DNA from: Candidatus Pacearchaeota archaeon
Lineage (GTDB): Archaea > Nanobdellota > Nanobdellia > Pacearchaeales > UBA284
Length of the DNA: 32,000 bases
NCBI GenBank assembly: GCA_026016245.1
Contig: CP061211.1
Span: 1-32,000 of the forward strand
Direction of reading: 5' to 3'
Of this stretch, positions 1-19,176 are shown in pieces. The position numbers and the translations under genes were made by a program. The notes under the pieces are model-generated. The model was given only the letters and a program-made list of their open reading frames with translations, did not search any database and was not told where the DNA came from. Within the stretch, counting starts at the first letter, position 1; every line of letters begins with the position of its first letter.

Positions 1-3000
1 AAGAACCAGAAGAACCAATAGAAGAACCAGAAGAACCAATAGAAGAACCAGAAGAACCAATAGAAGAACCAGAGGAACTAGAAGAACCAGAAGAACCAGA
101 AGAACAGCCTGCTGAAGAACCTGTTGAAACTGAAATAGATATTCCAGATTTAACTGGAGCTGCTGTAGAAGAAGTTAGAGTGATAGATGGAATTTGTACA
201 ATAGAAGAATCTTTTATTTATGAGATAGATGAAGATGAATTTGCCCAGCTTATTCCTGGTAGCGTGATTTCCAAAAATGAAACATTGAAAGATTCTGTTA
301 TAAAAGTGATAAACAAAAAAACTGAAGTTGAGGTAACAACTAGCTATGCTGAAAAGGAATATGGTTATGGTTCTGATTTTCTTAGAGATAAAAAGATTAT
401 AGGTATTAATCTAAGTAAATTCAATTTTACAGTTTATGAACCTGGCACTTACAAATTTGATGTTAATTTTGTTTATTCAAATATTTCTTTGGCTTCTATT
501 TCCACAGAAGTTTTATTTGAAAATATAACTGAGATGGAACTTATGAATATTACAAATATTACTAACATAACAGAAATTAACGTAACTAATGTAACTAACT
601 TTACAATAACTTTTGTTGATAGAAAAGGAGAAGTGAAGGACATTATTGAGATTGAGTTTGATAAGAGTAAAGAACAGCTATTGAATCTCAAGGTGGCTGA
701 GACAAATATGATAGCTAGTATTATAGAGAAACAAGAAGAGATAAAAGAGGAAATTATAGAAAATAATTTTACAAAAGGAATAATAGGATTAGTTATTGTT
801 CAAGAATTATTGCCTGAAACTGAATTGAATATAGTAGAATTATCCCAGGACATAACTATTCAGATAGATTATCCTACATCAGAACAAGAAGTTATGGGCA
901 TTAAAACAGAAATTTTTGCTCTTGAGCCAACTAATGGACTTGTTTTAGAAGAGTCAATTATAACATTAGAAAAAGTTGAGGAAAATGTAACTTCTATATT
1001 ATATTGTTCTAAATGGGATATTGGATCTTTTTCATGTGATAATGATTGGTCAACTAAAAATATAGGGTTCTTGGATAATGGCACACATATTAGTTTTAAC
1101 ATAACAAGCTTTTCTGCTTATGCTGGTGGCAAGATCATGAATGTAACAAATATCACAAACATAACAGAGGTTTATTTGGAAATATGGGACGAAACAGATT
1201 ATGAAACAAAATATCCTGGCGATGAAGTTGGTTTTTATGCTAATTATAGAGACCAAGATGGAAATCAGATATTAAGTGGATGTAGTATTTTCTTTGATGA
1301 TAAAGAATATAGTATGCTTTTTATAGATCCTTTTTATGAATATATTAAGGTATTTGATTCTTCAGGAGAATTTGATTATAACCTTGTTTGTAATGTTTCT
1401 GAAGCAAGTGACATAGTAGAAATAAAGGAAGTTGAAAAAATAGAAGTAGAGAGAGGCCCTAATTGGGATGGTTATGAAAAAGAAGAAGGTATACACACAA
1501 GAATATTTTATTCAACCAGAGTAAATATAAAAGATTCTGATGGAAATTACTATCCTATTGATGATGTTGTCAAAATTGAGAAAATAAAAGAACATAAGTT
1601 TAATGTAAAATGGAGAGATAATGAGGTGGATATTAATATCATAGGACTTGGTCCAAATAATTTGCTATCAACAAAACTATACAAGCATGAAAAAGAGATT
1701 AGATATGATTATAAATTTAAAATAAATGATTCTAAATTTATCCCAAAAGTTCTCATAAAATCAAATAAAGAACTAGAACTATTAGAATATGGTTTTAGAT
1801 TAGAAGATATTGAATTTGATTTTTCAGAAAAAGCTAAGGAAGATTTTGATGTTAGAATACTAAATGAAGAAACAGGATACAGAATAACAGGATTAGCAGT
1901 AGAACAAAATATAAAAACCAAAACAGGAAGAGTAGAACTAGTGAAGGATTTCTCCAAAAAAGTAGGAGATTTTGTGATAATAGATCCTGTGATTAAATTA
2001 ACTTCTGGCAATGATTCAGCAGATATTCATGGTAGTGCACCTGCTCTGCCACCATCTCATGAATTACAGATGAAATGGGATATAAGTAGTATTCCTGATG
2101 ACTCCAGAATAGATGATGCAAAAGTTTGTTTATATATAATTGATAAACAAGGCAGTCCAGATAATGATGCAAATTTTTCAAGAGTAAATAACCAGACATG
2201 GGATGAAAGTATTGATGCAACAGGATATAATAATTTAGAAGAAACAAACATAACAAAACGCTATATATGGAGCAGCACAACTATTAACACATGGTCTTGC
2301 ATTAATGTGGCTGCCGCAGTATCAACAGATTATAATTTAGATAACCAGAATACAAGTTTTAGAATAGAAGATTTAGATGCTGTTATATCTTCTGTTGGAA
2401 AAATAAATGATTTAACTTACATGAGGTTTGGTGTAGAAGGATTTATGACTCCTGGACCTTTTCTTGATTTTGCTTCAAGAGAATACACTGAGACTGAGGG
2501 TTTAAAGCCTTATCTTAATATTACTTATACAGATATTGTAAACCCAAATATAGAATTTGTTTCTCCTACTCCTGGAAATGGAACAACACGATCAGAAGAT
2601 TATATTTATGTTAATGTTACTACAAGTGACACAAGTGATCATTATGCTGTCTTAGATTGGAATTATTCTTTAAGAGGATGGTGGAGATTTGAGAATAATG
2701 CTAATGATAACAGCACTTATAGTAATCATGGTGTTGTAAGTGGTGCAACTTATGAATCTTCAGGAAAATTTGGAGGAGCATATAATTTTGACGGAAGTGA
2801 TGATTCTGTAAATATATCAGATGCCACTGGTATAGGTTTAGAAGGTAGTGAATTTACTTTAACAACATGGGTAAAACCAAAGCAGTTAAAAAATTATGGT
2901 AATGCATTTGAGAAATTCCCATCAGCTTTGACATCTGGATGGGGGGTTATTACTTATGCTAATGGTAAATGGGATTTCCAAAGCAGAGATAGTTCTGGCT

Positions 3001-5750
3001 GGTCAAATATTAATGGTGGAGCAGCAGGATCTCTAGTTAATGGTGTATGGGCCTTCCTTACAGTAACTTATAATAGTACTCATGTCAGAACTTATACCAA
3101 CACAAATCTTGTTTCAACAGTTGCAAGAAGTCAAATTGTAGATAATGCTCTTGACTTGCATATTGGGTGTGATGCTGGCTATAACAGATATTTTAGTGGG
3201 ACCATAGATGAAGTTCAGATTTATGACAGGGCCTTGTCTATAAAAGAAATTAGAGCAAGTTATAATGCTGGCTCATATAGACTTGAAAATAATTTTACTA
3301 ATTTATCAAATGGAGAATACAAGTTTAGGGCTTATGCCATTGATATAAGTGGAAATACAAATCAGACAGAAGAAAGACAAGTAAATGTACATTTATGCGG
3401 CTGTAATAATGGAACATATAATTATATCTGTGGTGAAACAATAACAAGTTCTTGTACAATGAACTGTGATTTAAATGCCTCTGGAACTTGTTTTACAATT
3501 GGAGCAGATGATATTATAGTAGATGGAGATGGATATACAATCAATTACTCTTCTTCAAGTACTGGATATGGAATAAACAACTCAGCAGGTTATGACAACA
3601 TAACAATAACCAACTGCACAATCAATCAAACCAATGCTTCTGTGTGGAGCTTTGGTATAGTCTTAAATGAGTCTGATGACAGTACAGTAGAATATTGTAA
3701 TATGACAAATGGCAAGGCAGGAATTCTTGTCATGAATTCTTTTAATACAACTATTCAGCATAATTATGGATATAAATTTGATTATGGAGCAGCAACAGAG
3801 TGGGCAACTTGTGATCCTTTTAATGACACAATTCCTTACAAATTCTATGAATCTGGAATTTGGTTTGTTGAAAGCAGTAATGGAACAATATATAATAATT
3901 CAATTTATGGAGATGATTCTGAGTCAGGAGTTATGAATCATAATGGAACAGAAGCTGGAGTAACATTATGTAAAAGCAATTATACAAACATAACAGCAAA
4001 TAAGATTTATTATACAGATACTTTTGGATTTATTCTTTCTCAAAGCCATTATAATGATTTCTTTTATAATTTCATAAATGGCTCAAATACAACTGGTGCT
4101 CATAATACAAATGATGGGATTATCCTTGGAGGACCAAGTGGAGATGTTGATGCTGGAGCTTGCAATAATAATAATCTCAGCTTTAATGAGTTTTATGATT
4201 GTTCAGAATGGGGTCTTTTCCTAACAGGATCAAATAATAATACAATTTATAATAACACTGCAAATAGCAATACTGTTGGGATAAGAATTGGAGGAACTTC
4301 AAGTTCTAATAAAGTATATGATAATATTGTTAATGATAATACTGATTTTGGACTTGGAATAGAGGGAAATTATAATGAGGTAATAAACATTACAATCTTA
4401 TCAAATAATCAAAAAGGGATCCATATTTCTGATGCTTCTGCTCCAGGATATTGTCATGACAATATTATAATCAATGCAGAAATAGATTCAAGTGCTTTTG
4501 GAGTTTATATTAGTGCAGATAATCTTGCTGGATGTCAGGATAATATACTAAAAGATTCAAAAATAACAAACTCTGCAACAAAAGACATCTATGCATCAGC
4601 AGGTTTAGAAGGAACCCAGACTTTAAATGCAACTTTTTTAAATGTTTCCTTCAATAAAACCAGCATATTTTTTAGTCCAGAGCTTGAGAGTGGAGCTCTT
4701 TACATAAAATGGTATGTAGATGTTTATGTTAAAAATAAGCTAAATCAACCTATTGATCAAGCCAATGTAACTGCTTGGGATGTTAATAATACTTTAACAT
4801 TTACTAAATTAACAAACAGCTCAGGCTATATAGAAAGACAGAATGTAACTGAATTTTTTGAAAATGCGACAGGAAAATATTATTATACCAATTATAGCAT
4901 GAATGCAAGTAAAACTTCAGAAAATTATAAGGAAAAATCTCAAGAAGTTAATTTAACTATAAATAAACTTGTTATATTTATTTTAAATAGACCACCTACT
5001 AAACCTGTATTAATTAGTCCTGGAAATGAAAGCCATATAACAGATAGAACTCCTTTGTTTAATTGGACTAATGCTATAGATGAGGATGGTGATTCAATAC
5101 ATTATGTTTTGAATTTAACTTGTAATAAACAATTTGGTAATTGTGATCCTCTTGATAATAGATTTATTGAAAATATTGCTCAGTCAAATTATACCCCTAA
5201 TGATGATGAGTTTTTGAAAAATTTTTGGGATACTCTTGAATATTACAATTGGACTATTAAAGCGTGGGATGGTGAGGATTATGGTCCTGTTAGTGATGAA
5301 TGGCGTTTTAATATTGATAGTTTAGTAGCTGTAAGTCCGATAAATGATACATCTAATTTTGGTTCTATGCAACCTGGGACAAGCAATGATACTACTGATA
5401 ATAATCCATGGCCTGTTTCAATACAAAATGATGGAAATTGTTTTGTTAACATGAGTATTTATGCTACACAATTATGGGATATTACTCCTGCAACAAATGA
5501 ATCTTATCAATACAAATTTGATTTTTTAGAATCAAATTCATTTAATTGGAGCACTAGTACAATATCTTGGGCTAATATTCCAATTGGCTTTACAACACCT
5601 AATGTTTTAAATGAATTCAATTGGAGCTGGGATGATTTGAATGATAGCGCTGAATTAGATATTAAGCTTGCTCCATTAAGCAAAGAACCTCCCGGAGATA
5701 AAAATTCAATCATAACTCTAACAGGAACTTTTGAAGACATAGCAGAATAA
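1..5750 (+). CDS. Giant secreted or surface adhesin-like protein, 5'-partial. Order of recognisable parts: acidic EPEEPIE linker, DNRLRE-like domain, LamG/ConA-like lectin domain, right-handed parallel beta-helix (NosD-like) repeats, CarboxypepD_reg-like beta-sandwich, Fn3-like module.
   Basis: The frame of the 180..5750 ORF stays open to the window edge (codons from nt 3 read EPEEPIEEPEEPIE...VEEVRVIDG), so the GTG at 180 is probably not the true start. LamG-like signature: FDGSDDSVNISD...FTLTTWVKP...GTIDEVQIYDRALSIKEIRASY (~2680-3270). Beta-helix repeats: ITITNCTINQTN / STVEYCNMTNGKAGILV / NNTIYNNTANSNTVGIRIGG (~3400-4600). DNRLRE-like: LQMKWDISSIPDDSRIDDAKVCLYI (~2000-2530). About 80 N-x-S/T sequons counted by eye. 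There is no C-terminal TM anchor. Confidence 0.85.
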   Translation, partial: EPEEPIEEPEEPIEEPEEPIEEPEELEEPEEPEEQPAEEPVETEIDIPDLTGAAVEEVRVIDGICTIEESFIYEIDEDEFAQLIPGSVISKNETLKDSVIKVINKKTEVEVTTSYAEKEYGYGSDFLRDKKIIGINLSKFNFTVYEPGTYKFDVNFVYSNISLASISTEVLFENITEMELMNITNITNITEINVTNVTNFTITFVDRKGEVKDIIEIEFDKSKEQLLNLKVAETNMIASIIEKQEEIKEEIIENNFTKGIIGLVIVQELLPETELNIVELSQDITIQIDYPTSEQEVMGIKTEIFALEPTNGLVLEESIITLEKVEENVTSILYCSKWDIGSFSCDNDWSTKNIGFLDNGTHISFNITSFSAYAGGKIMNVTNITNITEVYLEIWDETDYETKYPGDEVGFYANYRDQDGNQILSGCSIFFDDKEYSMLFIDPFYEYIKVFDSSGEFDYNLVCNVSEASDIVEIKEVEKIEVERGPNWDGYEKEEGIHTRIFYSTRVNIKDSDGNYYPIDDVVKIEKIKEHKFNVKWRDNEVDINIIGLGPNNLLSTKLYKHEKEIRYDYKFKINDSKFIPKVLIKSNKELELLEYGFRLEDIEFDFSEKAKEDFDVRILNEETGYRITGLAVEQNIKTKTGRVELVKDFSKKVGDFVIIDPVIKLTSGNDSADIHGSAPALPPSHELQMKWDISSIPDDSRIDDAKVCLYIIDKQGSPDNDANFSRVNNQTWDESIDATGYNNLEETNITKRYIWSSTTINTWSCINVAAAVSTDYNLDNQNTSFRIEDLDAVISSVGKINDLTYMRFGVEGFMTPGPFLDFASREYTETEGLKPYLNITYTDIVNPNIEFVSPTPGNGTTRSEDYIYVNVTTSDTSDHYAVLDWNYSLRGWWRFENNANDNSTYSNHGVVSGATYESSGKFGGAYNFDGSDDSVNISDATGIGLEGSEFTLTTWVKPKQLKNYGNAFEKFPSALTSGWGVITYANGKWDFQSRDSSGWSNINGGAAGSLVNGVWAFLTVTYNSTHVRTYTNTNLVSTVARSQIVDNALDLHIGCDAGYNRYFSGTIDEVQIYDRALSIKEIRASYNAGSYRLENNFTNLSNGEYKFRAYAIDISGNTNQTEERQVNVHLCGCNNGTYNYICGETITSSCTMNCDLNASGTCFTIGADDIIVDGDGYTINYSSSSTGYGINNSAGYDNITITNCTINQTNASVWSFGIVLNESDDSTVEYCNMTNGKAGILVMNSFNTTIQHNYGYKFDYGAATEWATCDPFNDTIPYKFYESGIWFVESSNGTIYNNSIYGDDSESGVMNHNGTEAGVTLCKSNYTNITANKIYYTDTFGFILSQSHYNDFFYNFINGSNTTGAHNTNDGIILGGPSGDVDAGACNNNNLSFNEFYDCSEWGLFLTGSNNNTIYNNTANSNTVGIRIGGTSSSNKVYDNIVNDNTDFGLGIEGNYNEVINITILSNNQKGIHISDASAPGYCHDNIIINAEIDSSAFGVYISADNLAGCQDNILKDSKITNSATKDIYASAGLEGTQTLNATFLNVSFNKTSIFFSPELESGALYIKWYVDVYVKNKLNQPIDQANVTAWDVNNTLTFTKLTNSSGYIERQNVTEFFENATGKYYYTNYSMNASKTSENYKEKSQEVNLTINKLVIFILNRPPTKPVLISPGNESHITDRTPLFNWTNAIDEDGDSIHYVLNLTCNKQFGNCDPLDNRFIENIAQSNYTPNDDEFLKNFWDTLEYYNWTIKAWDGEDYGPVSDEWRFNIDSLVAVSPINDTSNFGSMQPGTSNDTTDNNPWPVSIQNDGNCFVNMSIYATQLWDITPATNESYQYKFDFLESNSFNWSTSTISWANIPIGFTTPNVLNEFNWSWDDLNDSAELDIKLAPLSKEPPGDKNSIITLTGTFEDIAE
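3..110 (+). repeat. In-frame 21-nt tandem repeat encoding an EPEEPIE acidic Pro/Glu linker
   Basis: The unit gaaccagaagaaccaatagaa is perfect at 3-23, 24-44 and 45-65, with degenerate copies to ~110 (EPEELE, EPEEPEEQP). The repeat may continue left of the window. Confidence 0.9.
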
Positions 5751-5768: not shown

Positions 5769-6734
5769 ATGAGAAATAAAATAAAAAGAAGGAAAGAGGG
5801 AAAAAAGAAGATATTTTTATTAGTTATAACTTTTTTTATATTTACCTTCTTGTTTAGCAATGTTAATGCTCTTGGAATTACTCCTGGAAGAACTAGTTTT
5901 GAATTTGAACCAGATATTGAAAAAATAGTTGAATTTAGACTTGTTAATACTGAAAACAAAGCTATGAATATTTCTTTGAAAGTAGGAGGAGAATGGTCTG
6001 ATTTTGTCATTTTAAATCAGACATCTGTTAAATTTAATGCAGATGAATATATGAAAACTTTAAGTTATAAGGTTAGATTTCCTTCTAGTATTGATAGTGG
6101 AGGGATAAAAGCAAAAATAATTGCTTCAGAAACAGCTTCTAATAATTTAGCTCAAGGAACAACAATTGGTATAAATATTGCTGTAGAACATCAGCTTTAT
6201 GTTTTATCAAATATAACTGCCCCTGAAAAAGAGGAAATAAATGTTACTAAAGTATTTGTTAAGCACTATCAGAAAGGAGAACCTGCAAAAGTTGAAGTAG
6301 AAATAATAAATCCTTCAGCAGAGACAATGAAAAATGTTTATTCTACAATGCTGGTTTATGATAGATATGGCCTTCTTAGAAGCCAGTTTAATTCTACTCA
6401 TATAGATATTGAGCCAAATAAGACTGAGACAATAGAGGCTTATTGGGATACTTATGGTTTTGAAAAAGGGGATTATGGAGCCAATCTTATTATTTATTAT
6501 AATAATAAGACAGAAGAACAAGGCCTTATAATTTCTTTAGGTAGTGATAGAATAGAGATTGGTTTTGGGAAGTTTGAATTTGAAAAACATCCTACAGTTC
6601 CAATATCAATAACAGAAATTAAAAAAATAAATCCAGTGATAATAGCTCTTATTGTTGCTATTATCTTGTTTATTATTGTAGATATTATCGTCTTTATTTA
6701 TTTAAAAAAGAAAACGAAAAAAATCATAAATTAA
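5769..6734 (+). CDS. Membrane-anchored surface protein with a signal peptide, an N-terminal beta-sandwich module, one CARDB-like domain and a C-terminal TM helix with a Lys-rich tail
   Basis: An AAGGAGG Shine-Dalgarno sits 5751-5757, just after the upstream stop. N-terminus: KKKIFLLVITFFIFTFLFSNVNA|LG. C-terminus: VIIALIVAIILFIIVDIIVFIYLKKKTKK. It is a paralogue of the 7862..9079 product (YWDTYGFEKGDYGANLIIYYNNKTEEQG vs YWDTTGIETGEYDAKVVLHYEDKTTVKEG). Confidence 0.8.
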   Translation: MRNKIKRRKEGKKKIFLLVITFFIFTFLFSNVNALGITPGRTSFEFEPDIEKIVEFRLVNTENKAMNISLKVGGEWSDFVILNQTSVKFNADEYMKTLSYKVRFPSSIDSGGIKAKIIASETASNNLAQGTTIGINIAVEHQLYVLSNITAPEKEEINVTKVFVKHYQKGEPAKVEVEIINPSAETMKNVYSTMLVYDRYGLLRSQFNSTHIDIEPNKTETIEAYWDTYGFEKGDYGANLIIYYNNKTEEQGLIISLGSDRIEIGFGKFEFEKHPTVPISITEIKKINPVIIALIVAIILFIIVDIIVFIYLKKKTKKIIN

Positions 6735-6841: not shown

Positions 6842-7072
6842 ATGGGAGATATTTCAAAGACAGTAGTTGTTATCCTTCTTATCGCCACTATTTTAGTTTC
6901 AGTTATTGGAACCTGGTTTATTTTGAATACTATAGATAATGCAATGGTGGGAGTTTCTACTGGGCAGATGAAAAGTACTGGGGGAGTTAGTGTCACAGTG
7001 GCTAATCCATCAGATTATATGTCTTCAGGAGCTGGGCAAGTAGGAGTTAATATTGAAAACCCCCCAGCTTAA
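6842..7072 (+). CDS. Small (76 aa) protein with a pilin-like N-terminal hydrophobic helix. It may be a minor filament subunit or a signal-anchored protein.
   Basis: The N-terminus MGDISKTVVVILLIATILVSVIGTWFILNTIDNAMVG is homologous to the N-terminus of the next gene. From memory it resembles the archaeal Pilin_N/DUF1628 consensus (..[27 protein letters not shown]). A TATA-like TTTAAAAA at 6812-6819 lies ~26 nt upstream of the ATG and there is no SD, which suggests a leaderless mRNA. Confidence 0.6.
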   Translation: MGDISKTVVVILLIATILVSVIGTWFILNTIDNAMVGVSTGQMKSTGGVSVTVANPSDYMSSGAGQVGVNIENPPA

Positions 7073-7154
7073 AAAGATATAGAAGATAAGAAGGTCAATA
7101 GAATAATATTAATTTAAATATTATTAAATTTATAAATCAAAGAAAAAAGAGAAA

Positions 7155-7799
7155 ATGGCTGAAATATCAAATAAATTCCTTGTGTTTTTGTTAGTAGTAG
7201 CTATTTTAGTAACAATTGTAGGAACTTGGTATAGTATTGACAGAGTTAATAGATTAGCAGGAGTGACAGGTTATGGAACAGCTGGTTATGTCAATGTTAC
7301 AATTACAGGAAAGATATCAATTAATATAACACAGCCTTATTGTGGTTTTGGAAGTGGGCATGTTACAGAAGGATATGACTATGCAATTCTAGCTCCTGGA
7401 TCAACAGGTGAACCGCCATGTTGTGAACTTGGGGATACAAAAGCAAACTGGACAAACACAACATCATATGCCCCAGATTGTATGGTAATAAAGAATGTAG
7501 GAAACACTAATGCAAAGATTAATGTAAGTTCAGATAAGGATGCAGCAACAATGATTGGAGGAAGTAGTCCAAATGTTACAGTATGGTTTGAGGATAAAAC
7601 TTCTGATGCTTGTATTGGTGGTGCTGGTCTGATAGGGTATCCTGGAAGTGAGATATCAACAGCAAACATAACAATATGTAATAGCTTAGACACAACTAAT
7701 GATGAGATGTATGTTGGCTGTTATCTAAAAATTCCAAAGGATGCAATAGCTAGTGCAAAAACAGCGGAATGGACATTTACTGGAACAGCAGCTCCATAA
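7155..7799 (+). CDS. 214-aa protein with a pilin-like N-terminal helix and a Cys- and sequon-rich extracellular domain. Candidate filament or surface subunit.
   Basis: N-terminus: MAEISNKFLVFLLVVAILVTIVGTWYSIDRVNRLAGV. The motif IS.K....L.A.ILV.(V/I)(I/V)GTW(F/Y) is shared with the 6842 gene. Seven N-x-S/T sequons and about eight Cys. TTTATAAA at 7129-7136 lies ~23 nt upstream of the ATG and there is no SD. Confidence 0.65.
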   Translation: MAEISNKFLVFLLVVAILVTIVGTWYSIDRVNRLAGVTGYGTAGYVNVTITGKISINITQPYCGFGSGHVTEGYDYAILAPGSTGEPPCCELGDTKANWTNTTSYAPDCMVIKNVGNTNAKINVSSDKDAATMIGGSSPNVTVWFEDKTSDACIGGAGLIGYPGSEISTANITICNSLDTTNDEMYVGCYLKIPKDAIASAKTAEWTFTGTAAP

Positions 7800-7861: not shown

Positions 7862-9079
7862 ATGAACAAAAAGATTTTTATTTTTATTTTTTTATTTCTA
7901 TTTTTAGTAATAATATTCAATTCAACTTTAATTACTGCCCCAGGTATAGCTGGTGCTGTGTATGAAGTTCTTTTTTTTGAACCTGGACTAGAAAAAACAT
8001 ATGTTTATCATGTAGATTCCAATACTATTAGGCCAATGGATCATTATATTGATATGAATGGTGATCTAACACCATATTTTACTTTGAGTACTAGTGTTTT
8101 TGAAGATCTTGCTCCTGGAGAACTTAGAAGTTTTGAGGCTCATATGAAATTACCTCAAGAACTTGAGCCAGGAGAGCATAGATTATATATTTGCGCAACA
8201 GAGGCTGAAGGAAGAACCCCTGAGGGCGCAGGAGCAGGTATCGGAACCAGGGTAAGAGTTTGTGCTGTAATTATTGTAATTTCACCACATCTAGGCAAAC
8301 ATGTTGAAGTTTCTATGGATGTTGAAAATGTTGCTAAAGGCGAAGATGCTGAATTCAAACTTAATGTTTTTAATATAGGCACTGAAGCAATTGATATTCA
8401 TAGTGTGATAGATATTTATAGTCAAGAGGTTAGTGCTGGGAAAGAAACGAAAATTGTTACACTTAAAACAGATAAAGATTATTTAGTTAGTGGTCAAAAA
8501 ACAACTTTGAGTGCATCTCATAATACAAGTGATATGGATATAGGGGAATATAAGGTAAAGGCAATACTTTATTATGATGGACTTCAAGAAACTGTAGAAA
8601 AAACTTTCCGTGTTGGGGAACTTAATATTGAGATTTTGGAATTTACAGAAGAAGTATCTCAGAATCAGTTAAATCCTATAAATGTCAAAGTCAAAAACGG
8701 GTGGAAAGGTGAAATTAAGGATATTTATGCTTCTATTGAAGTCAAACACCCTACGAAGAATTTAGTTATAGCCACCATAAAAACTCCCCCAACTAATATT
8801 AAAGCGTGGGAAACAAGGAATCTTGTGGCTTATTGGGATACTACTGGAATTGAGACTGGGGAGTATGATGCTAAAGTTGTATTACATTATGAGGATAAAA
8901 CAACTGTAAAAGAGGGAAAAATAAAGGTAAAAGAATTTGTGGAAGGGCCAGCCATCTCTTTAACTGCCATCTTATTATTCATGCTTATAATTGCTGTTCT
9001 TGTATTAATTATTTTAATAATACATATGATGAAAAAAAGACAGGGACGAGTTGTGAAAAAGAAAAAGATTAAAAAATAG
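7862..9079 (+). CDS. Membrane-anchored surface protein with a signal peptide, an N-terminal beta-sandwich module, two CARDB-like domains and a C-terminal TM helix with a Lys-rich tail
   Basis: N-terminus: MNKKIFIFIFLFLFLVIIFNSTLITA|PG. C-terminus: LTAILLFMLIIAVLVLIILIIHMMKKRQGRVVKKKKIKK. It is a paralogue of the 5769..6734 product. TTTATAAAAA at 7837-7846 lies ~21 nt upstream of the ATG. Confidence 0.8.
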   Translation: MNKKIFIFIFLFLFLVIIFNSTLITAPGIAGAVYEVLFFEPGLEKTYVYHVDSNTIRPMDHYIDMNGDLTPYFTLSTSVFEDLAPGELRSFEAHMKLPQELEPGEHRLYICATEAEGRTPEGAGAGIGTRVRVCAVIIVISPHLGKHVEVSMDVENVAKGEDAEFKLNVFNIGTEAIDIHSVIDIYSQEVSAGKETKIVTLKTDKDYLVSGQKTTLSASHNTSDMDIGEYKVKAILYYDGLQETVEKTFRVGELNIEILEFTEEVSQNQLNPINVKVKNGWKGEIKDIYASIEVKHPTKNLVIATIKTPPTNIKAWETRNLVAYWDTTGIETGEYDAKVVLHYEDKTTVKEGKIKVKEFVEGPAISLTAILLFMLIIAVLVLIILIIHMMKKRQGRVVKKKKIKK

Positions 9080-9098
9080 TAAAACATCAATAATTTAT

Positions 9099-9551
9099 AT
9101 GGTAAAGGCTAAGACAAGAACTAAAACTAAAAAAAAGATAAGATGGGGCAGGCTTTTTCTTATGCTTATCATAATTGCTATGGTAGTAACAGCCATAACA
9201 CAATTTCTTTATTATTATTTAAATTATCAATATGGCGTCAGGCAGAGACAGGTTTATGAGATGAAATTGAAGGTTGCTGATTATGTTGGTTTTAGCGTTG
9301 ATCCAGATATTTTAAATTTTGGAGTGGTTATGCCTTCAGGAGGATCAAAACGTTCTGTTGAGCTTTCAGCTGATGAGCCGACAAAAGTGAAGGTCATACT
9401 TAAAGGTGATTTAGCACCTTGGGTTATGGTTTCAGAGAATAATTTTGTTTTTGAAGGTGATAAGAGTATTGAATTTACAGCAGTAGTGCCAGAAGATGTA
9501 GAAGAAGGAGAATACACAGGAACAGCAATCATATTATTCAAGAAACCTTAA
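9099..9551 (+). CDS. N-terminally anchored 150-aa protein with a single beta-sandwich domain
   Basis: A basic N-terminus is followed by a TM helix (RWGRLFLMLIIIAMVVTAITQFLYYYL). The segment KVILKGDLAPWVMVSENNFVF matches LKVGGEWSDFVILNQTSVKF (5769 gene) and MNGDLTPYFTLSTSVFE (7862 gene). The C-terminal VPEDVEEGEYTGTAIILF strand is typical of PapD/CARDB-like sandwiches. Confidence 0.7.
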   Translation: MVKAKTRTKTKKKIRWGRLFLMLIIIAMVVTAITQFLYYYLNYQYGVRQRQVYEMKLKVADYVGFSVDPDILNFGVVMPSGGSKRSVELSADEPTKVKVILKGDLAPWVMVSENNFVFEGDKSIEFTAVVPEDVEEGEYTGTAIILFKKP

Positions 9552-10162
9552 GTCTTCATTAGAATATCAATTTCTTTTTTTATGTCTTTAGCAACTGTTT
9601 GTATTGGCCTGTTTCCTTCTATAATCTTGATATTGTCTTTTAGATAATTTGGCAGGAGAAGGAACTTTTTTCTTGTTTTACGCAATATTTTCAATTTTTC
9701 AAAATAAGATCTTTTTTCTTTGGTAATCTCATATTTCTCTTTTACTCGCTCTAGAGCAATATCAGCTGGAACATCAATTATAAAAGTAATTGTTGGCATT
9801 AAAAATTCTTTTGTATATTCTTGCCATTCTTCTTCGTCAAGTTGATAAGCGAGAGTGCTGTAATAATAACGGTCACATATTACAATTTTTCTTTCTTCCA
9901 GCGCTGTTTTTATATTCCTAACAACATCTTTTGTATCAAGTCTAAAAAGTTCTAACCATTTTTCCTTGCTTACTCTTGCTGCCTCTTTTCTTCTCAATAA
10001 ATTTTCTATCTTTTTTCCATATTCTCCTTCAGAAGGCTCACTTATTAAAAAAACATCAAAGCCAAGTTTTTCTAGATATTTTTTAAGAATTTCTACTTGT
10101 GCGCTTTTACCATTCCCATCAATTCCATCAAAAACAATAAAAATATTTTTTTGTTGTTTCAT
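9548..10162 (-). CDS. tmk: Thymidylate kinase
   Basis: P-loop FIVFDGIDGNGKSAQ and DRYYYSTLAYQ motif; 204 aa. Its stop codon overlaps the convergent upstream gene's stop in a TTAA palindrome. Confidence 0.85.
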   Translation of the reverse strand: MKQQKNIFIVFDGIDGNGKSAQVEILKKYLEKLGFDVFLISEPSEGEYGKKIENLLRRKEAARVSKEKWLELFRLDTKDVVRNIKTALEERKIVICDRYYYSTLAYQLDEEEWQEYTKEFLMPTITFIIDVPADIALERVKEKYEITKEKRSYFEKLKILRKTRKKFLLLPNYLKDNIKIIEGNRPIQTVAKDIKKEIDILMKT

Positions 10163-11692: not shown

Positions 11693-12267
11693 TATGTTTT
11701 TTTATTGGAAAAAGAAACAAGAAAATAGAATATTCTTTCAAGAAATTAGGTTTTGATAAAGTTTATTTTGTAAAGGAAGTGTCTAAATTAAAGGAAATAA
11801 GAAAAGAAGACAAAAGTACTTATAATGCTTTTTTAATTAAAACTAAGGGAATAGAGATGTTGAGGAGGATGGTTGATAAAGCATCTAATTATATTTCCTT
11901 TATTCTTGTTTTAGGGATAAATGATGAAATAAATCGTATCACTTTAGAACATAAAAAAGTCAGGGCTTTGGTAAGTCCTGAATACAAAAGAGAAAAGGAT
12001 TTCTTGCATTATAGAAATTCTGGTTTAAATCAGGTATTATGTAAGATAGCTAGAGACAATGATAAGATAATTATAGAGAATTTTAGTGATTTTATTTTAG
12101 AGAGCAAAGATATAACAAAAGCTCTTATTTTAGGAAGAATGATTCAGAATGCTCGACTTTGTAAAAAATATAAAACAAGACTTATTATAGGGAATTTTGT
12201 TAGAAATAATTCTGAATTTAGGTCAAAATATGATTTAGAAACTTTTAAGAGAATTCTATTTGTTTAG
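11689..12267 (+). CDS. rnp3: RNase P protein component 3 (Rpp30/Rnp3 family)
   Basis: VRALVSPEYKREKDF..SGLNQVLCKIARDNDKIIIENFSDF...LILGRMIQNARLCKKYKTRLIIGNF aligns by eye with the Pyrococcus Rpp30 segment [30 protein letters not shown]...[24 protein letters not shown]. Confidence 0.65.
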   Translation: MICFFIGKRNKKIEYSFKKLGFDKVYFVKEVSKLKEIRKEDKSTYNAFLIKTKGIEMLRRMVDKASNYISFILVLGINDEINRITLEHKKVRALVSPEYKREKDFLHYRNSGLNQVLCKIARDNDKIIIENFSDFILESKDITKALILGRMIQNARLCKKYKTRLIIGNFVRNNSEFRSKYDLETFKRILFV

Positions 12268-12540
12268 AATCTTAATGTTTTTGTTTTTATATGGCCAAGG
12301 GCTATGGCCTAATTGGATAATCAGGTCTATATTCAGGTTTTTAAGTTCAAGAGGCAGGTCGCAAGCACCATAACAAGAACCAAGCCAAATAAGACATTTT
12401 GCTTTTGTTTTTTTCTCAATCTTATCTACTAACTTTGTGGCTTCTAGCTTTAATCCTTCTGGAAGTTGCAAACAGACAAGTTTTGCTTTTTCCTTTTTAA
12501 TTGTTCTAATAATTTTGTCTATCTCCAAATCATATTTCAT
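12256..12540 (-). CDS. dph2: Dph2 (2-(3-amino-3-carboxypropyl)histidine synthase) N-terminal fragment. It is only 94 aa where full-length Dph2 is ~330-340 aa.
   Basis: KAKLVCLQLPEGLKLEATKLVDKIE...CLIWLGSCYGACDLPL...DLIIQLGHS matches the first ~85 residues of archaeal Dph2 (..RVLIQSPEGLRREAEELA...INYGACDP...DALIHLGHS). It has its own AAGGAGA SD about 10 nt upstream. The ORF ends inside the 3' end of the convergent rnp3 gene. Confidence 0.6.
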   Translation of the reverse strand: MKYDLEIDKIIRTIKKEKAKLVCLQLPEGLKLEATKLVDKIEKKTKAKCLIWLGSCYGACDLPLELKNLNIDLIIQLGHSPWPYKNKNIKILNK

Positions 12541-13840: not shown

Positions 13841-16800
13841 TTATTTCCTAGCTAAGTCTTCTTGTTTTGTTATTTTTACAAGTAGTCCAGGAAGCCCTGT
13901 TCCTACTGGTACAGGTTGGTTGAGAATTAGGTTTTCAATCACACTCACAAGATGGTCTGTTGATGCTGTGATAGAAGCATTAACAAAATGTTTTATAGGT
14001 GTTTCGAATGAAGCTCTAGCAAGAATAGATGATTTATCTGATATTATTCCAACTCTTGTAACCCCCTTAACACTTCCGCTTGAAGTCATGGCATCAGCAA
14101 CCAGTTTAATGTGTTTATCATTTATGGCAAGACTTTGTTTTTCTATAACCTTCTTTGCTTCATTAATTATTGCTTGTCTTGCTGCCTCTATTCCAAGGAC
14201 ATTATAGATCTCATAAATATTGTTTGTTATTACCTTATTTTTATCAATACCTTTTATTTTGAAAATATCTTCAAGATTAGAACCAGCTGTAAGAATAATA
14301 TAGTCTGAATCTCTTTTTACGATGAGGATTTGAGATATTCCCTTGACTCCAGCAACATTTGTCTCTTTTAATTTTTCTTTTATCTTATATAGACCTTTAA
14401 AATCTTCTTCTTCCTTTGGTTTTATTGATAATCCTTCATCTGTTTTTTTTATTCTGATATATTTTGATTCTAGAGCTGAGATGATTTTTTCCTTGCTTAG
14501 ATGTAACTCTCTAAGGGATTTTTTGTTTAGTTTTATATTGATTTTGGATTCGCTAAAATTTACCTGGATTTCTTCAGTAATATCATTTAATTTTATCTCT
14601 CTTATCTTTGCAGCTATTCTTTTGGCAGCCCCTGAATTATTATGCTGTCTTTCTAGATAAATCTCCATACTAGGAGTGCTTGGTTTCTTCCTTGCGTCAA
14701 ATATTTCTATTAATCTTGGAAGGCCAACTGTAATCTGCATTTCTGAAACGCCGGCGAAATGGAAAACATTAAGTGTCATCTGTGTAGCTGGTTCACCAAA
14801 ACTCTCTGCTGTTATAACTCCTATAGCCTCTCCAGGAGCAATTTTGTTATCTTCAAGATGTTCTTTTGTTATGTCTATACCATCTTCCCCATATTCAAAT
14901 TGAATAATGTTTGCATTAGAATCTCTTACAGTCCCATCATATTCCACCCTCAAATCTTGTAGTGCATTTACAAGCCTTCTGTACAAGTAGCCGGATTTTG
15001 GTGTTCTTAGTGCTGTATCCATGAGTCCATCTCTTCCTGTAACTGCTGTAAAGAAAAACTCGTCTGCTTTTAATCCATTTAAATAGTTAGAATAAATAAA
15101 TCCGCCTGCCCTAGCTGCAAAATCCCTCTCTTTGTAAAATGATAGAGTCCTGTTATTATATCCAAAGTTTATTCTTTTAGCCCAGAGAGACTGCTGTCCC
15201 ACTGTGGAAGCCATTTGTGTTAAGAACAAAAGACTTCCTCTGGAGCCACACACAGCCATTATATAGGCAGGATTATCCTTTTTGAGTTCTTTTTTAACAG
15301 AATCTCCTACTTTTGTTCTTACCTCATTAAGTGTCTGTAAGATTTTAATTTCTCTGCTCTCTTCAAATGTTTTTCCAGGAATTATTTCTAAAGTATTGTC
15401 ATAGAAAGAGGCAATTATTTTCTGTACTTTCTTTTCAGCTCCTTTGATTATTTCTTTTGTTTCTTCCTTAACCTTATCTGTGGTTTCAATATCTGCTATT
15501 GAGATAGTGAAACCCTTTCTTGTCAAATAAAGGACGCCAAGCAGGAATACTCTCTTTAAGAAATCTATTGTTCTTTTTCTTCCTGCCTGTCTATCTAACT
15601 CTCTTGTTAGAGTATTTGTTTCAACACCAATTATTTTTTCATCGATAAGACCAGAAATAAGCTTTCCATTTTTGATTGCAACATATGCATTATATGGGCA
15701 ATTTTCCTTTTTGCATCTTTCAAAGTAAGGACAGCCCCTTCCTTTACAAGCTTTTGATTTTGTTTCAAAATTTATTTTTGGAAGTAATGCTGAGAATATT
15801 TCTCTTCCATAAACCTTTTCTTTAAAGTGTATGTTTTTTATATTAGTACCACATGCTGAGAGAAGTTGTATAGCCTCTTCTCTTGGGATATTTTTTGCTG
15901 ATGTCAATAGATAGAGGCCGGTTATAGCATCTTCAACACAACCTAACACATTGGCATTTATTTTTGGCGATATGAGATGGTTTGCTACGTCAAGCAGAAC
16001 TTTAGCTTCAGCTCTAGCTTCTTCTGTTTGTGGCACGTGAATATTCATAGCATCACCATCAAAGTCTGCATTGTATGGGAAGGTTGCTGCTGGGTGTATT
16101 CTAAATGTTCTTCCTGGGAGTACTTTTACAAAATGCCCCATAAGACTCATTCTATGTAGTGAGGGATGTCTGTTGAAAAGAACAATATCATTATCTTCTA
16201 GGTGTCTCTCAACAAGATAGCCAATATCAAGTTCTTCTTTAAGTTGTTCTCTTAATTCTTCTGTGATTCTTTTTCTCTTGCCGTCTAGTCTAATAATACT
16301 GTTTGCAGCTGGGTAAATTGTTTTTTCAATTTTTTTGCTAAGAAGGCCCATGTTAGATGTTGTGATTCTTTCAGGGACAGTAAGAACTTTTGCTATTTCA
16401 AGAGGGACGCCAACATCATTAATTTCAATGTATGGATCTGGGCTTATGATTGTTCTTGAGCTGAAATTGACTCTTTTACCAGCAAGATTATGCCTGATTC
16501 TTCCTTGTTTTCCTTTAATTCTTTCAGTTATTGTTTTTAATGGCTGTCCACTTCTATGTCTTGCTGGAGGAACATGACTTATTGTATTATCAAAGAAAGT
16601 TGTTGAATGGTATTGTAATAAATCCCATAGATCCTCGATGATAACTTCTGGGGCCCCTGCATTAAGATTCTCCCACAGACGCTGGTTTGCTCTAACAATA
16701 TCACTTAGCTTATGTGTCAAATCATCCTCACTTCTCTCTCCTGTTTCAAGAGTTATGCTAGGGCGAACTGTTACCGGTGGGACTAACAAAAGAGTTAGAA

Positions 16801-17353
16801 TAGCCCACTCTGGTCTACAAGATTTTGGATTTATTCCTAGAACACGAGCATCACTGTCACTTATCCTAACAAGTCTTTCACGAATTTCTGTAGGGAAGAT
16901 TCTTTTTTTGCCAATGTAAAAAGAAGATGGCTTGTCTAGTTTTACTTTTTCTTGTTTTGTTCCACAATAAGGGCATTTTTTTGCTGTTCTTGCTTTATCT
17001 ACTCTTTTTAATTTTATGTATTCCTCTGTCAAGAGAATCCTTCCACATTCCTGGCATGTAGCTTTTAAACATAGATATATAAGAGGAAGGAATTTTATGT
17101 GCAGAACAGGACGAGCTAGTTCAATATATCCAAAATGACCCAAACACTCTTTAAGCAATCCTCCACAAGTTCTGCATCTGACTCCTGGACCTATTGCTCC
17201 TAGTCTTAGATCCATCAAGCCACCATCTACTGGATAGCCGTCCATGTCATAAAGTTCTGGAGTTACAATTTTAGCAGCACCAAATTTCTTTATCTGCTCA
17301 GGAGAGAACAAGGAAAATTGAATTTCCTTGATCTGTTTAATTATTGGTTCCAT
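13841..17353 (-). CDS. rpoA: DNA-directed RNA polymerase subunit A, with the A' and A'' regions in a single unsplit 1170-aa ORF
   Basis: N-terminal Zn ribbon RCRTCGG..CLGHFGYIEL. Catalytic YNADFDGDAMNIHVPQ. Bridge helix TGRDGLMDTALRTPKSGYLYRRL. Trigger loop (normally in A'') GEAIGVITAESFGEPATQMTLNVFHFAG. A''-type C-terminus NQPVPVGTGLPGLLV. All are in one frame with no stop. Confidence 0.95.
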   Translation of the reverse strand: MEPIIKQIKEIQFSLFSPEQIKKFGAAKIVTPELYDMDGYPVDGGLMDLRLGAIGPGVRCRTCGGLLKECLGHFGYIELARPVLHIKFLPLIYLCLKATCQECGRILLTEEYIKLKRVDKARTAKKCPYCGTKQEKVKLDKPSSFYIGKKRIFPTEIRERLVRISDSDARVLGINPKSCRPEWAILTLLLVPPVTVRPSITLETGERSEDDLTHKLSDIVRANQRLWENLNAGAPEVIIEDLWDLLQYHSTTFFDNTISHVPPARHRSGQPLKTITERIKGKQGRIRHNLAGKRVNFSSRTIISPDPYIEINDVGVPLEIAKVLTVPERITTSNMGLLSKKIEKTIYPAANSIIRLDGKRKRITEELREQLKEELDIGYLVERHLEDNDIVLFNRHPSLHRMSLMGHFVKVLPGRTFRIHPAATFPYNADFDGDAMNIHVPQTEEARAEAKVLLDVANHLISPKINANVLGCVEDAITGLYLLTSAKNIPREEAIQLLSACGTNIKNIHFKEKVYGREIFSALLPKINFETKSKACKGRGCPYFERCKKENCPYNAYVAIKNGKLISGLIDEKIIGVETNTLTRELDRQAGRKRTIDFLKRVFLLGVLYLTRKGFTISIADIETTDKVKEETKEIIKGAEKKVQKIIASFYDNTLEIIPGKTFEESREIKILQTLNEVRTKVGDSVKKELKKDNPAYIMAVCGSRGSLLFLTQMASTVGQQSLWAKRINFGYNNRTLSFYKERDFAARAGGFIYSNYLNGLKADEFFFTAVTGRDGLMDTALRTPKSGYLYRRLVNALQDLRVEYDGTVRDSNANIIQFEYGEDGIDITKEHLEDNKIAPGEAIGVITAESFGEPATQMTLNVFHFAGVSEMQITVGLPRLIEIFDARKKPSTPSMEIYLERQHNNSGAAKRIAAKIREIKLNDITEEIQVNFSESKINIKLNKKSLRELHLSKEKIISALESKYIRIKKTDEGLSIKPKEEEDFKGLYKIKEKLKETNVAGVKGISQILIVKRDSDYIILTAGSNLEDIFKIKGIDKNKVITNNIYEIYNVLGIEAARQAIINEAKKVIEKQSLAINDKHIKLVADAMTSSGSVKGVTRVGIISDKSSILARASFETPIKHFVNASITASTDHLVSVIENLILNQPVPVGTGLPGLLVKITKQEDLARK

Positions 17354-17376: not shown

Positions 17377-19176
17377 TTAATCCTCATATTTGTTCTTGAG
17401 CATTAGATGAGGGAATAAGCTGAGAGAGATGAGCTCTTCCATTAATAACTTGGAGGCATAAGAAATTTCTACTGGCTCTAATTTCTGGCCACCACAAAGA
17501 GGGCAAATTTCTCTTTTCCTTAGCTTATCTCGAATTCCAAAACTTCCACATTTTGGGCATATGTGTGCAACGATATTATCTGAGCTGAATCTTTCTTTAA
17601 GCAATAAGGAAGCTCCATGGGCTACTAAAACATCTTTTTCCATCTCCCCTAATCTTAATGCACCACCTTTTGCTCTTCCTTCAACTGGTTGTCTCGTTAA
17701 CAAGGTAATTTTACCAGAAGCCCTCATTTGTATTGTGTTTGCAACCATATATTTTAGCTTTAAATAATAAATATTGCCGATGAAAATTTTTGCTTCAAGA
17801 GGCTTTCCTGTCAAACCATCATACAGAGTTTCTTTTCCATCTGGCCTGAAACCTAAGTCAAGCAGCATTTTTTCAAATTCTTTAATATTAGGTTTACTAA
17901 AAGAAGAACCATCTATTATTCTTCCATTTAGACAGCCTATTTTTCCAGTCAGTAGTTCTAGAAGATAGCCAACTGTCATTCTGCCTGGAATCCCATGAGG
18001 ATTAAAAATAAGGTCTGGCTTGATTCCTTTGGAAGTGAAGGGTAGATCTTCTTCATTAACTATTGCTCCTATGACACCTTTTTGTCCGTGTGGGGAGGCA
18101 AATTTATCTCCGATTTCAGGAATTCTATTATCTCTTGTTCTAACCTGCACAATCTTGTGACCTTGAGAGTCTGTTGTAAGAAAAACACCATCTACGATAC
18201 CTTTTTCAGCCTGTCTTATTACAGTACTATTCTCTTTTGTTACCCTGGCTAAAGAAATTTCTTCCATCTCAAGCAAGAATTTTGGAGGGGACATCTTTCC
18301 TATAACCACCTCACTTTCTTCTAATTCTGCTTCTGGGTAAACCACCCCATCCTCTTCTAGATAACGGTAAGATTTCTCTGTTCTGTAACCACTAACATCC
18401 TTTGTTGGCACACCTATTTTATCTTTCAAGTTACCTGTGTAATGCAATTCAGTTGAAGTATATGGTCTAAAGTATGTGCTTCTTCCTAATCCTCTATCCA
18501 CACTTGCCTTGTTTAGAACTATAGCATCACTCATGTTATATCCTTCATAAGGCATGATAGCAACGATAACATTCTGACCAGCCGGATAAAAGTTTATTGT
18601 ATCATAAACAAAACTTCTCACGATTGGTTTCTGAGGATAATGGAGAATACTTACATCAGTATCTATAAGATTAAGGTAATTAGCAGCATAAAGGCCAAGA
18701 GCTTGTTTATGTGTTCTTCCTACTTTATTTAATCTTGAGCTCTGGTCATGGTTTCCATAAGGTATCAAAGATATGATTGCTCCAAACATTGCCATTGGAT
18801 CTACCTCTAGATGCGTGTGTTCTGGGGTTAAATCTTCTTCTGATATTGCCACAAACAAATTATCCTCTTCAGCAGCATCCACATATTCTATTATGCCAAG
18901 AGCTATCAAGTCATCCCAACTCAATTCATCTTTTTTTAGTGCTTCTATGTGTTCTTCCTTTAATTTTGGCTGTCCATCTTTGATAATTATTAGGGGCCTT
19001 AAAACTCTGCCAACATCAGTTGTCAAGAAAATTATATCGCCAACTTTATCATATCTAATGCTTAGCTCAGAAGGTAATTCCTGAGCTCTTCTTTTTTCTC
19101 TCAATACTTCTATAAAATGCTTATTGTCTTCTACTTCACCAATAAAATGACCATTGTAAAATACATCTGTTTCCAT
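17377..19176 (-). CDS. rpoB1: DNA-directed RNA polymerase subunit B' (C-terminal half of the split RpoB)
   Basis: Motifs seen: GDKFASPHGQKGV, NPHGIPGRMTVG, GGALRLGEMEKDVLVAHGA and the C-terminal Zn motif CPKCGS...CPLCGG. Confidence 0.95.
   Translation of the reverse strand: METDVFYNGHFIGEVEDNKHFIEVLREKRRAQELPSELSIRYDKVGDIIFLTTDVGRVLRPLIIIKDGQPKLKEEHIEALKKDELSWDDLIALGIIEYVDAAEEDNLFVAISEEDLTPEHTHLEVDPMAMFGAIISLIPYGNHDQSSRLNKVGRTHKQALGLYAANYLNLIDTDVSILHYPQKPIVRSFVYDTINFYPAGQNVIVAIMPYEGYNMSDAIVLNKASVDRGLGRSTYFRPYTSTELHYTGNLKDKIGVPTKDVSGYRTEKSYRYLEEDGVVYPEAELEESEVVIGKMSPPKFLLEMEEISLARVTKENSTVIRQAEKGIVDGVFLTTDSQGHKIVQVRTRDNRIPEIGDKFASPHGQKGVIGAIVNEEDLPFTSKGIKPDLIFNPHGIPGRMTVGYLLELLTGKIGCLNGRIIDGSSFSKPNIKEFEKMLLDLGFRPDGKETLYDGLTGKPLEAKIFIGNIYYLKLKYMVANTIQMRASGKITLLTRQPVEGRAKGGALRLGEMEKDVLVAHGASLLLKERFSSDNIVAHICPKCGSFGIRDKLRKREICPLCGGQKLEPVEISYASKLLMEELISLSLFPHLMLKNKYED

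Follow-up and report, generated by a model that had tools for sequence, protein, structure and literature searches.

A 32,000-nucleotide (nt) stretch of Candidatus Pacearchaeota archaeon (contig CP061211.1, positions 1 to 32,000; referred to as the window) encodes two adjacent proteins of 76 and 214 amino acids (aa) that share an N-terminal hydrophobic helix. The pair was found to be part of a conserved surface module of DPANN archaea (Pacearchaeota/Woesearchaeota). By analogy with WxL clusters, we estimate a probability of about 0.5 that both proteins are Sec-type signal-anchor subunits of a WxL-cluster-like adhesion complex joined by strand complementation, in which the 76-aa protein would be a membrane-anchored strand donor. 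An original prediction, made from the sequence alone, had likened the shared helix to the N-terminal domain of archaeal type IV pilins and had listed a new family of signal-anchored subunits among its options; the latter is close to what the evidence supports, and is extended here to a conserved DPANN surface module. The window has a GC content of ~30% and encodes archaeal RNA polymerase subunits, and its relatives carry the labels Pacearchaeota or Woesearchaeota.

Homology of the 76- and 214-aa proteins

The two open reading frames (ORFs) are located on the forward strand with a spacing of 83 nt. Since none of the in-frame codons ahead of their ATGs (5 for the 76-aa and 9 for the 214-aa protein) is ATG, GTG, or TTG, the N-termini MGDISK and MAEISN are fixed, and the leaders of only 2-3 residues described in the original prediction are real. 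A TATA-like box (TTTAAATA) upstream of both genes (6781 and 7113) was set aside because its window-wide count equals the chance expectation.

Significant similarity between the two proteins was detected by BLASTP: 34% identity over 74 residues with an E value of 2e-9. A 40-column hidden Markov model (HMM), built solely from residues 1-40 of the 214-aa family, matched the 76-aa protein with 28 bits (E 1e-7; 21-28 bits when its orthologues are included), while the remaining transmembrane (TM) helices of the window and 13 other loci scored 9 bits or less. When the 76-aa family was compared with the 214-aa family by hhalign, a probability of 97.5% and an E value of 7e-12 were obtained (columns 1-58 vs 1-55), and the homology extended from the helix through the linker into the first strand (GGVSVTV and GYVNVTI); a second strand (QVGVNIENP and ISINITQP) corresponds by eye only. 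The pair is thus homologous, as had been claimed, and the homology extends past the helix and the ~37 residues to which it had been assigned. Because the alignment runs through the helix, linker, and first strand, the 76-aa protein is, as judged from these comparisons, a headless paralogue corresponding to residues 1 to ~60 of the 214-aa protein. The common N-terminal module opens with an acidic/Lys tail of 3-7 residues ((D/E)(I/V)S(N/K)K), followed by a TM helix of 21-22 residues, a linker, and a first beta-strand; S5, K6, G47, and V49 are invariant in the alignment of 76-aa orthologues (A5).

Only 22 relatives of the 214-aa protein, all unannotated and all from Pacearchaeota-type metagenome-assembled genomes (MAGs), were returned by a word-indexed search, and a locus search with the alignment of close relatives (A1) likewise gave only close Pacearchaeota/Woesearchaeota relatives. 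An HMM scan of 1.84 billion representative proteins retrieved 1742 clusters (50% identity) at E<=1e-3, including 1133 at E<=1e-10. The family had no matching Pfam or NCBIfam model when both window proteins and family members were scanned, and we found no account of it in DPANN, or of DUF3324 in archaea, in the literature. A typical member is ~200 aa long, and the start M-x(0-2)-[DE]-[IV]-S-[NK]-K was present in 103 of the 166 members of <=300 aa. Other members differ at this end: ordinary basic signal peptides are found in P0092, P0149, P0152, P0047, and P0048, and extensions of 20-47 residues in some members, with a long basic cytoplasmic extension in P0051 and P0083. Large multidomain proteins (P0146, P0171, and P0173) also end in a 214-type domain, and Kelch repeats interrupt the domain in P0114 and P0131. 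Extra 214-type paralogues are encoded elsewhere in the same genome, with several paralogous subunit genes per genome.

Seven sequons are present in the 214-aa protein, in agreement with the original count; shuffled sequences gave 2.3 +/- 1.3 (p about 0.002), and three of the seven are kept in 23-28 of 36 diverse relatives. The number of Cys, previously put at about 8, is 7 (positions 63, 89, 90, 109, 153, 175, and 189). Two elements following the helix are strongly conserved: an [IL]TG motif, the G39 of which is nearly invariant across the family, and the strand GYVNVTI, with G44 in at least 90% of members and V46 invariant in A1. The [IL]TG motif is located 4-8 residues before the first strand, and its distance from the helix ranges from 3 to >20 residues. 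The 214-type domain is probably extracellular because of the excess of conserved sequons and its fusion to the C-terminus of beta-helix adhesins.

Orphan 214-aa paralogues (10001-10681 in L002/L003; 10001-10648 in L005), with near-identical N-terminal 50 residues, lie between archease and RtcB genes and adjoin SecD/SecF. Their Woesearchaeota MAG also holds a full module.

The surface module and its likeness to WxL clusters and donor-strand fibres

Six independent modules were compared: that of the window and those of loci L001, L004/L006, L010, L012, and L014, with relatives down to about 35-40% identity. The genes are co-directional, in the following order: a giant beta-helix/LamG adhesin, a protein of ~320-350 aa, one of ~71-76 aa, one or two of ~205-220 aa, one of ~385-410 aa, and one of ~136-160 aa. 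The ~320-350-aa gene is missing in the more divergent modules L012 and L014, the 405-aa protein is kept in every module examined, and the 150-aa gene follows the 405-aa gene in L001, L004, L010, L012, and L014. A gene for an EpsH exosortase/archaeosortase-family membrane protein (8984-9943, reverse strand) lies convergent and directly downstream of the divergent module copy in L012; at the matching position, the window has a thymidylate kinase gene instead.

The giant adhesin of the window carries a divergent copy of the 214-type domain at its C-terminus. The domain HMM from diverse 214-aa relatives (alignment A2) gave a weak match there: 19.8 bits and an E value of 1.4e-7 over HMM positions 50-161. 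The C-termini of the orthologous adhesins in L001 and L010 scored 32.5 (E 5.6e-9) and 24.9 bits, respectively, and P0146, a beta-helix protein of 927 aa and the first gene of a module, scored 101 bits at residues 758-924. At the other end of the window adhesin, a 21-nt tandem repeat (window 1-105; 4.8 copies) encodes an acidic EPEEPIE linker, and the frame is open to base 3; the predicted GTG start at 180 is not the true start because the frame remains open to the 5' end of the window. A second giant protein of 1407 aa (27458-31681, forward strand) has a Big_2 immunoglobulin (Ig)-like domain as its sole match, and its C-terminus is unmatched by the 214-aa domain HMM.

The 321-aa protein was modelled with AlphaFold2 (AF2) at a mean pLDDT (predicted local distance difference test) of 71.5. 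The top three Foldseek matches were WxLIP of E. faecium (9i1y/9i25), including WxLIP bound to a long WxL protein, with E values of 7e-11 to 1.3e-10; FimC-type chaperones also matched, at about 6e-7. Thus, a WxLIP-like fold of this protein is shown at the level of the predicted model. WxLIP_HBD (DUF3324) was the commonest Pfam match among the 321/405-aa family (6 of 15 members; best E 1.2e-6), although the 321- and 405-aa proteins of the window themselves fell below the Pfam WxLIP cut-off, and had neither a DUF916 match nor the NQIDKxxxYFDLK motif. In WxLIP-type proteins, DUF916 and DUF3324 are the two Ig-like domains. The 405-aa protein is a paralogue of the 321-aa protein (BLASTP E 1e-9 and 1e-7), with Pfam E values of 9e-5 for CARDB and 0.19 for WxLIP_HBD. 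Since the 150-aa protein has no significant Pfam match, its Ig-like assignment relies on a sequence pattern.

WxL clusters of Firmicutes consist of a small domain-only WxL protein, a large one that bears adhesion domains (often beta-helical) at its N-terminus and a WxL domain at its C-terminus, and WxLIP (PMC10599100; PMC9772566). In WxLIP, two Ig domains lie between a signal peptide and a TM helix, and one strand of the protein is predicted by AF2 to complete the WxL sandwich (PMC10599100). The archaeal module resembles these WxL/WxLIP (Csc) systems of Lactobacillales and Bacillales (PMC10599100, PMC9772566, PMC1534035) in three respects: a small single-beta-sandwich protein (214 aa; small WxL proteins have 226-260 aa), a large adhesin that bears a beta-helix or other binding domains and ends in the same domain, and a 321-aa protein in which two Ig domains separate a signal peptide from a C-terminal TM helix. 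The combination of a small domain-only protein and a large adhesin with the same C-terminal domain was found in the clusters of the window, L001, L010, and P0146. On the other hand, the host is an archaeon and peptidoglycan is absent. The 214-aa domain lacks the dual W-x-L motif and has conserved Trp in NWT and (W/L)TF, and the small subunit possesses an N-terminal anchor helix instead of a plain signal peptide. A 76-aa TM-plus-hairpin protein, a second WxLIP-like paralogue, and a TM-plus-Ig protein are additional, and the DUF916 signature is missing. In comparisons of the 214-type domain with WxL (Pfam HMM, PDB sequences, and the Foldseek list), no WxL chain or Pfam WxL match was obtained; homology to the WxL system is therefore shown for the WxLIP-like fold only.

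In the AF2 model of the 214-aa protein (pLDDT 82.6), residues 3-38 form a helix, residues 29-55 are of low confidence, and the beta-sandwich is confident. GYVNVTI had a pLDDT of about 51 and was not assigned as a strand by DSSP in this monomer. FimG, FimA, PapE, Caf1, CsuA/B, and the cannula protein CanA were the best PDB matches by Foldseek (probability 0.9-0.97), but these were weak, with E>=2.4e-3 (none <=1e-3) and a TM-score <=0.51, so that the likeness to donor-strand pilins is suggestive, not conclusive. Profile searches of PDB sequences with A1, A2, and A3 gave nothing relevant. Archaeal threads and cannulae are donor-strand fibres without ATPases (PMC9715654). In addition to the fold matches, features reminiscent of donor-strand fibres (FimA/FimG/PapE/Caf1/CsuA/B, the Sulfolobus threads Saci_0406/0405, and CanA of Pyrodictium) are the alternating-hydrophobic N-terminal strand GYVNVTI, conserved and yet outside the monomer model; the ectodomain, predicted from its sequons to be heavily glycosylated as in Sulfolobus threads; a companion able to donate strands without an acceptor domain, comparable to the proposed cap Saci_0405 (PMC9715654); and, as in chaperone-usher pili, FimC-like two-Ig proteins encoded next to the 214-aa gene. 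Unlike these systems, no usher was found, the putative "chaperones" are membrane-anchored, and a long conserved TM helix takes the place of a short cleaved signal. A TasA/SipW-type signal, prompted by the likeness of "GTW" to GGGTWAAFND of TasA, was also considered and rejected: no TIGR04088 or Peptidase_M73 match was obtained, and neither TasA nor AbpA was among the Foldseek top 50.

Anchor, cleaved signal, or pilin

The uncharged stretch in the window pair is 21-22 residues long without a nearby A-x-A site, compared with 15-16 residues in the ordinary signal peptides of the neighbouring proteins. The features of signal peptidase I substrates (a basic n-region, an h-region of about 7-15 residues, and small residues at -3/-1 close to the h-region) are lacking in the pair, and are present in remote members (P0092, P0149, P0152, and the 203-aa protein of L014). 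The tail and helix do not resemble a disposable signal peptide because they are more conserved than the mature domain: the mean pairwise identity was 0.65-0.67 and 0.48, respectively, in A1, and 0.41-0.46 and 0.32 in A2. An N-in topology is likely because some members (P0051 and the giant adhesin of L004) bear a basic cytoplasmic segment ahead of the same TM-[IL]TG-strand arrangement. In L004 (1377-1800), the adhesin opens with the basic motif M-x-YKRYI..GK.YGPYEY.S.R, after which come a TM helix and LTGKISLDL. The cytoplasmic motif recurs in residues 1-62 of P0051 (248 aa; BLASTP E 9e-13), and it appears to represent a conserved cytoplasmic element at the N-terminus of DPANN surface proteins that has gone unannotated.

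From these features and the analogies above, we infer the topology, absence of cleavage, strand exchange, and role in adhesion as follows. The helix would be a signal anchor of N-in/C-out topology that depends on Sec, stays in place or is cut off only at a late stage, and sets the conserved strand beside the membrane. Beta-strand complementation, which is predicted for WxL-WxLIP and established for donor-strand fibres, may join the subunits; for the module itself, this is an analogy. The 76-aa protein, anchored in the membrane, would donate a strand and thereby tether or prime the 214-aa subunit, the C-terminal domain of the adhesin, or both, and the 321- and 405-aa proteins would be membrane-bound partners similar to WxLIP or chaperones. 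Through the adhesin displayed on the finished cell-bound complex or short fibre, the archaeon may attach to a host cell or surface. A bolder version, which we consider rather doubtful, is an usher-less, monoderm "chaperone-usher-like" archaeal pathway in which membrane WxLIP-like Ig-Ig proteins hold incomplete sandwiches, the 76-aa protein primes or anchors, and 214-aa subunits polymerise outward with the giant adhesin for host attachment.

Several observations weigh against the signal-anchor, strand-complementation reading. Diverse other proteins with two Ig domains (RbmA and arrestins) also match the 321-aa model at 1e-8 to 1e-7, and the fold matches of the 214-aa model are weak, as described above. 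No Pfam WxL match at E<=10 was found in 22 + 36 members of the 214-aa family, the DUF916 model was likewise unmatched, and no WxL match appeared in profile searches of PDB sequences (which included the WxL chain of 9i25) or in the Foldseek top 50. In divergent members, normal signal peptides end in [IL]TG or TSG and are possibly cleaved, and the helix of the window proteins might be cleaved too. Moreover, the C-terminal fusions P0171 and P0173 keep GYVNVSI in cis, which an integral A strand fits equally well.

The strongest alternative differs from the anchor reading in processing only. It regards the helix as an ordinary Sec signal, albeit one of unusual length and conservation, cut off at or close to [IL]TG by the archaeal signal peptidase I or a different protease, after which the freed 214-aa protein would polymerise as a chaperone-free donor-strand fibre similar to Sulfolobus threads, Pyrodictium cannulae, or TasA/Abp pili, with the 76-aa protein as a cap or nucleator peptide. 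The near-invariant G39 is consistent with this possibility, as are the textbook n-h-c signals of P0092, P0149, P0152, and the 203-aa protein of L014, which end in ..ITG/R or ..TSG/A (a slash marks the putative cleavage site here and below). The fold matches, including CanA, are with subunits of donor-strand fibres, threads and cannulae use signals of the signal-peptidase-I type and need no ATPase (PMC9715654), and the several paralogous subunit genes per genome would also suit a fibre. However, in the window subfamily, [IL]TG is located 12 to >20 residues past the 21-residue helix and at a fixed distance from the strand, not the membrane, and a role as a membrane-proximal signal peptidase I site was rejected there for this reason. 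An A-x-A-like site, present in the neighbouring 321- and 405-aa proteins, is missing after the helix; the conservation of the tail and helix exceeds that of the mature domain; and all other proteins of the module are membrane-anchored, suggesting a cell-bound complex over a released fibre. We consider cleavage and release possible, but unlikely.

A divergent type IV-pilin-like subunit, the helix of which polymerises unprocessed or after a divergent peptidase has trimmed 1-3 residues, with assembly by type IV pilus machinery encoded elsewhere in the genome, is far less probable. An N-terminal hydrophobic helix followed by a beta-sandwich is the architecture of archaeal pilins and archaellins; as in those proteins, the N-terminus of the pair is highly conserved while the globular domains differ among paralogues, an acidic residue is located near the N-terminus, and type IV pilus systems are encoded in related DPANN genomes (L013). 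Nevertheless, neither window protein nor two relatives matched TIGR02537 at E<=10, while a canonical DPANN pilin used as a positive control (L013:2520-3053, reverse strand; MKILRNMLKGKRG/VSPLIATVLL) scored 32.2 bits against a cut-off of 20. Pfam Pilin_N (PF07790) also failed to match the window proteins, but carries no weight because the control pilin was missed too. The original prediction had correctly noted the lack of a canonical class III signal peptide: [IV]S[NK]K is nearly always preceded by Asp or Glu instead of Gly/Ala after Lys/Arg (103 of 166 members have [IVL]S[NK] within the first 6-7 residues), and no [KR][GA] site is present. The canonical pilins in a related genome bear little resemblance to the pair (e.g., KGKRG/VSPLIATVLLIAF). 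No gene for an assembly ATPase, platform protein, or prepilin peptidase was found in the 32-kb window or in the modules L001, L004, L010, L012, and L014. In some members, the tail is replaced by basic cytoplasmic extensions of 20-47 residues or, as in divergent modules, by ordinary positively charged signal peptides, the domain also occurs without the helix at the C-terminus of giant proteins, and no archaeal pilin or archaellin was among the Foldseek top 50. With no Pilin_N-type match and no homologues in pilus loci, the likeness to type IV pilins proposed in the original prediction fails, and an assignment of the two proteins as type IV pilins is rejected on these sequence comparisons. An N-terminal helix plus a beta-sandwich alone is accordingly insufficient to call archaeal type IV pilins.

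The pilus locus of L013 (1-8687, reverse strand) is itself a canonical DPANN type IV pilus locus, encoding a T2SSE/PilB3 ATPase, beta-helix proteins, and several small pilin-like proteins with KGKRG/VSPLIATV-type signals. It lies 1.3 kb from the Kelch-containing 214-aa family member P0114.

Finally, the view that the shared helix is a generic TM segment, with a likeness due to low-complexity composition or chance, draws on the abundance of Ile, Leu, and Val in all TM helices of a 30%-GC genome, but is refuted by the HMM and hhalign comparisons, in which the family HMM picked only the two families (28-70 bits) among 14 sources and both share invariant polar positions (S5, N/K6, G23, and W25) and a post-helix strand, and by the synteny of the gene pair in six loci; the helix is, by these criteria, family-specific.

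Feature positions, other genes, and implications

Positions of the module genes and their domains in the window
Feature	Position	Strand	Remarks
Giant surface adhesin	3..5750	+	5' end beyond window; acidic EPEEPIE repeats
Giant adhesin, LamG domain	about nt 2790-3251	+	Pfam Laminin_G_3 1.3e-24
Giant adhesin, right-handed beta-helix/NosD repeats	about nt 3957-4565	+	Pfam NosD 1.3e-13, Beta_helix 2.7e-13
Giant adhesin, C-terminal domain	5385..5729	+	aa 1736-1850 of listed ORF; divergent Cys-less 214-type copy without the first (A1) strand
321-aa WxLIP-like protein	5769..6734	+	cleavable-type signal peptide (..SNVNA/LGITPGR); two Ig-like domains; C-terminal TM; basic tail
76-aa "headless" subunit	6842..7072	+	tail MGDISK; TM helix aa 7-28, nt 6860-6925
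76-aa strands, G-x-V-x-V-x-[VI]	aa 47-53, nt 6980-7000; aa 65-72, nt 7034-7057	+	
214-aa subunit	7155..7799	+	tail MAEISNK; TM helix aa 8-28, nt 7176-7238
214-aa linker end VTG	nt 7263-7271		
214-aa strand GYVNVTI	aa 44-50, nt 7284-7304		conserved, unplaced
214-aa beta-sandwich	aa 54-212, nt 7314-7790	+	rich in glycosylation sequons
405-aa paralogue of 321-aa protein	7862..9079	+	signal peptide; three Ig-like domains (one extra, CARDB-like); C-terminal TM; basic tail
150-aa protein	9099..9551	+	basic N-terminus, TM anchor, one Ig-like domain; last module gene

Outside the module, several genes on the reverse strand of the window deserve mention. A complete diguanylate cyclase domain of the GGDEF type (Pfam E 5e-40) is present in a 247-aa protein (23912-24655); signalling by cyclic-di-GMP is uncommon in archaea. 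A single protein of 1170 aa (13841-17353) with Rpb1 domains 1-5 constitutes RNA polymerase subunit A, corresponding to fused A'/A'', and subunit B is split into proteins of 599 and 515 aa (17377-19176 and 19181-20728, respectively). A 94-aa ORF (12256-12540) matches Diphthamide_syn over only the first ~64 of 302 model positions, and may be a gene remnant or a split gene; a short Diphthamide_syn ORF is also found in L001 and L004.

To our knowledge, little has been established about the way in which DPANN archaea attach to host cells, and most of their surface proteins lack an annotation. One conserved six-gene module links giant adhesins to the membrane via small, strongly conserved subunits, and its central family comprises at least 1742 clusters. 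We know of the WxL/WxLIP principle only from Firmicutes; if the strand-complementation model is true, it would reach archaea, and a membrane-anchored "strand-only" subunit would join the donor-strand repertoire. The module would then also provide concrete targets for cryo-electron tomography and proteomics of Pacearchaeota/Woesearchaeota enrichments.

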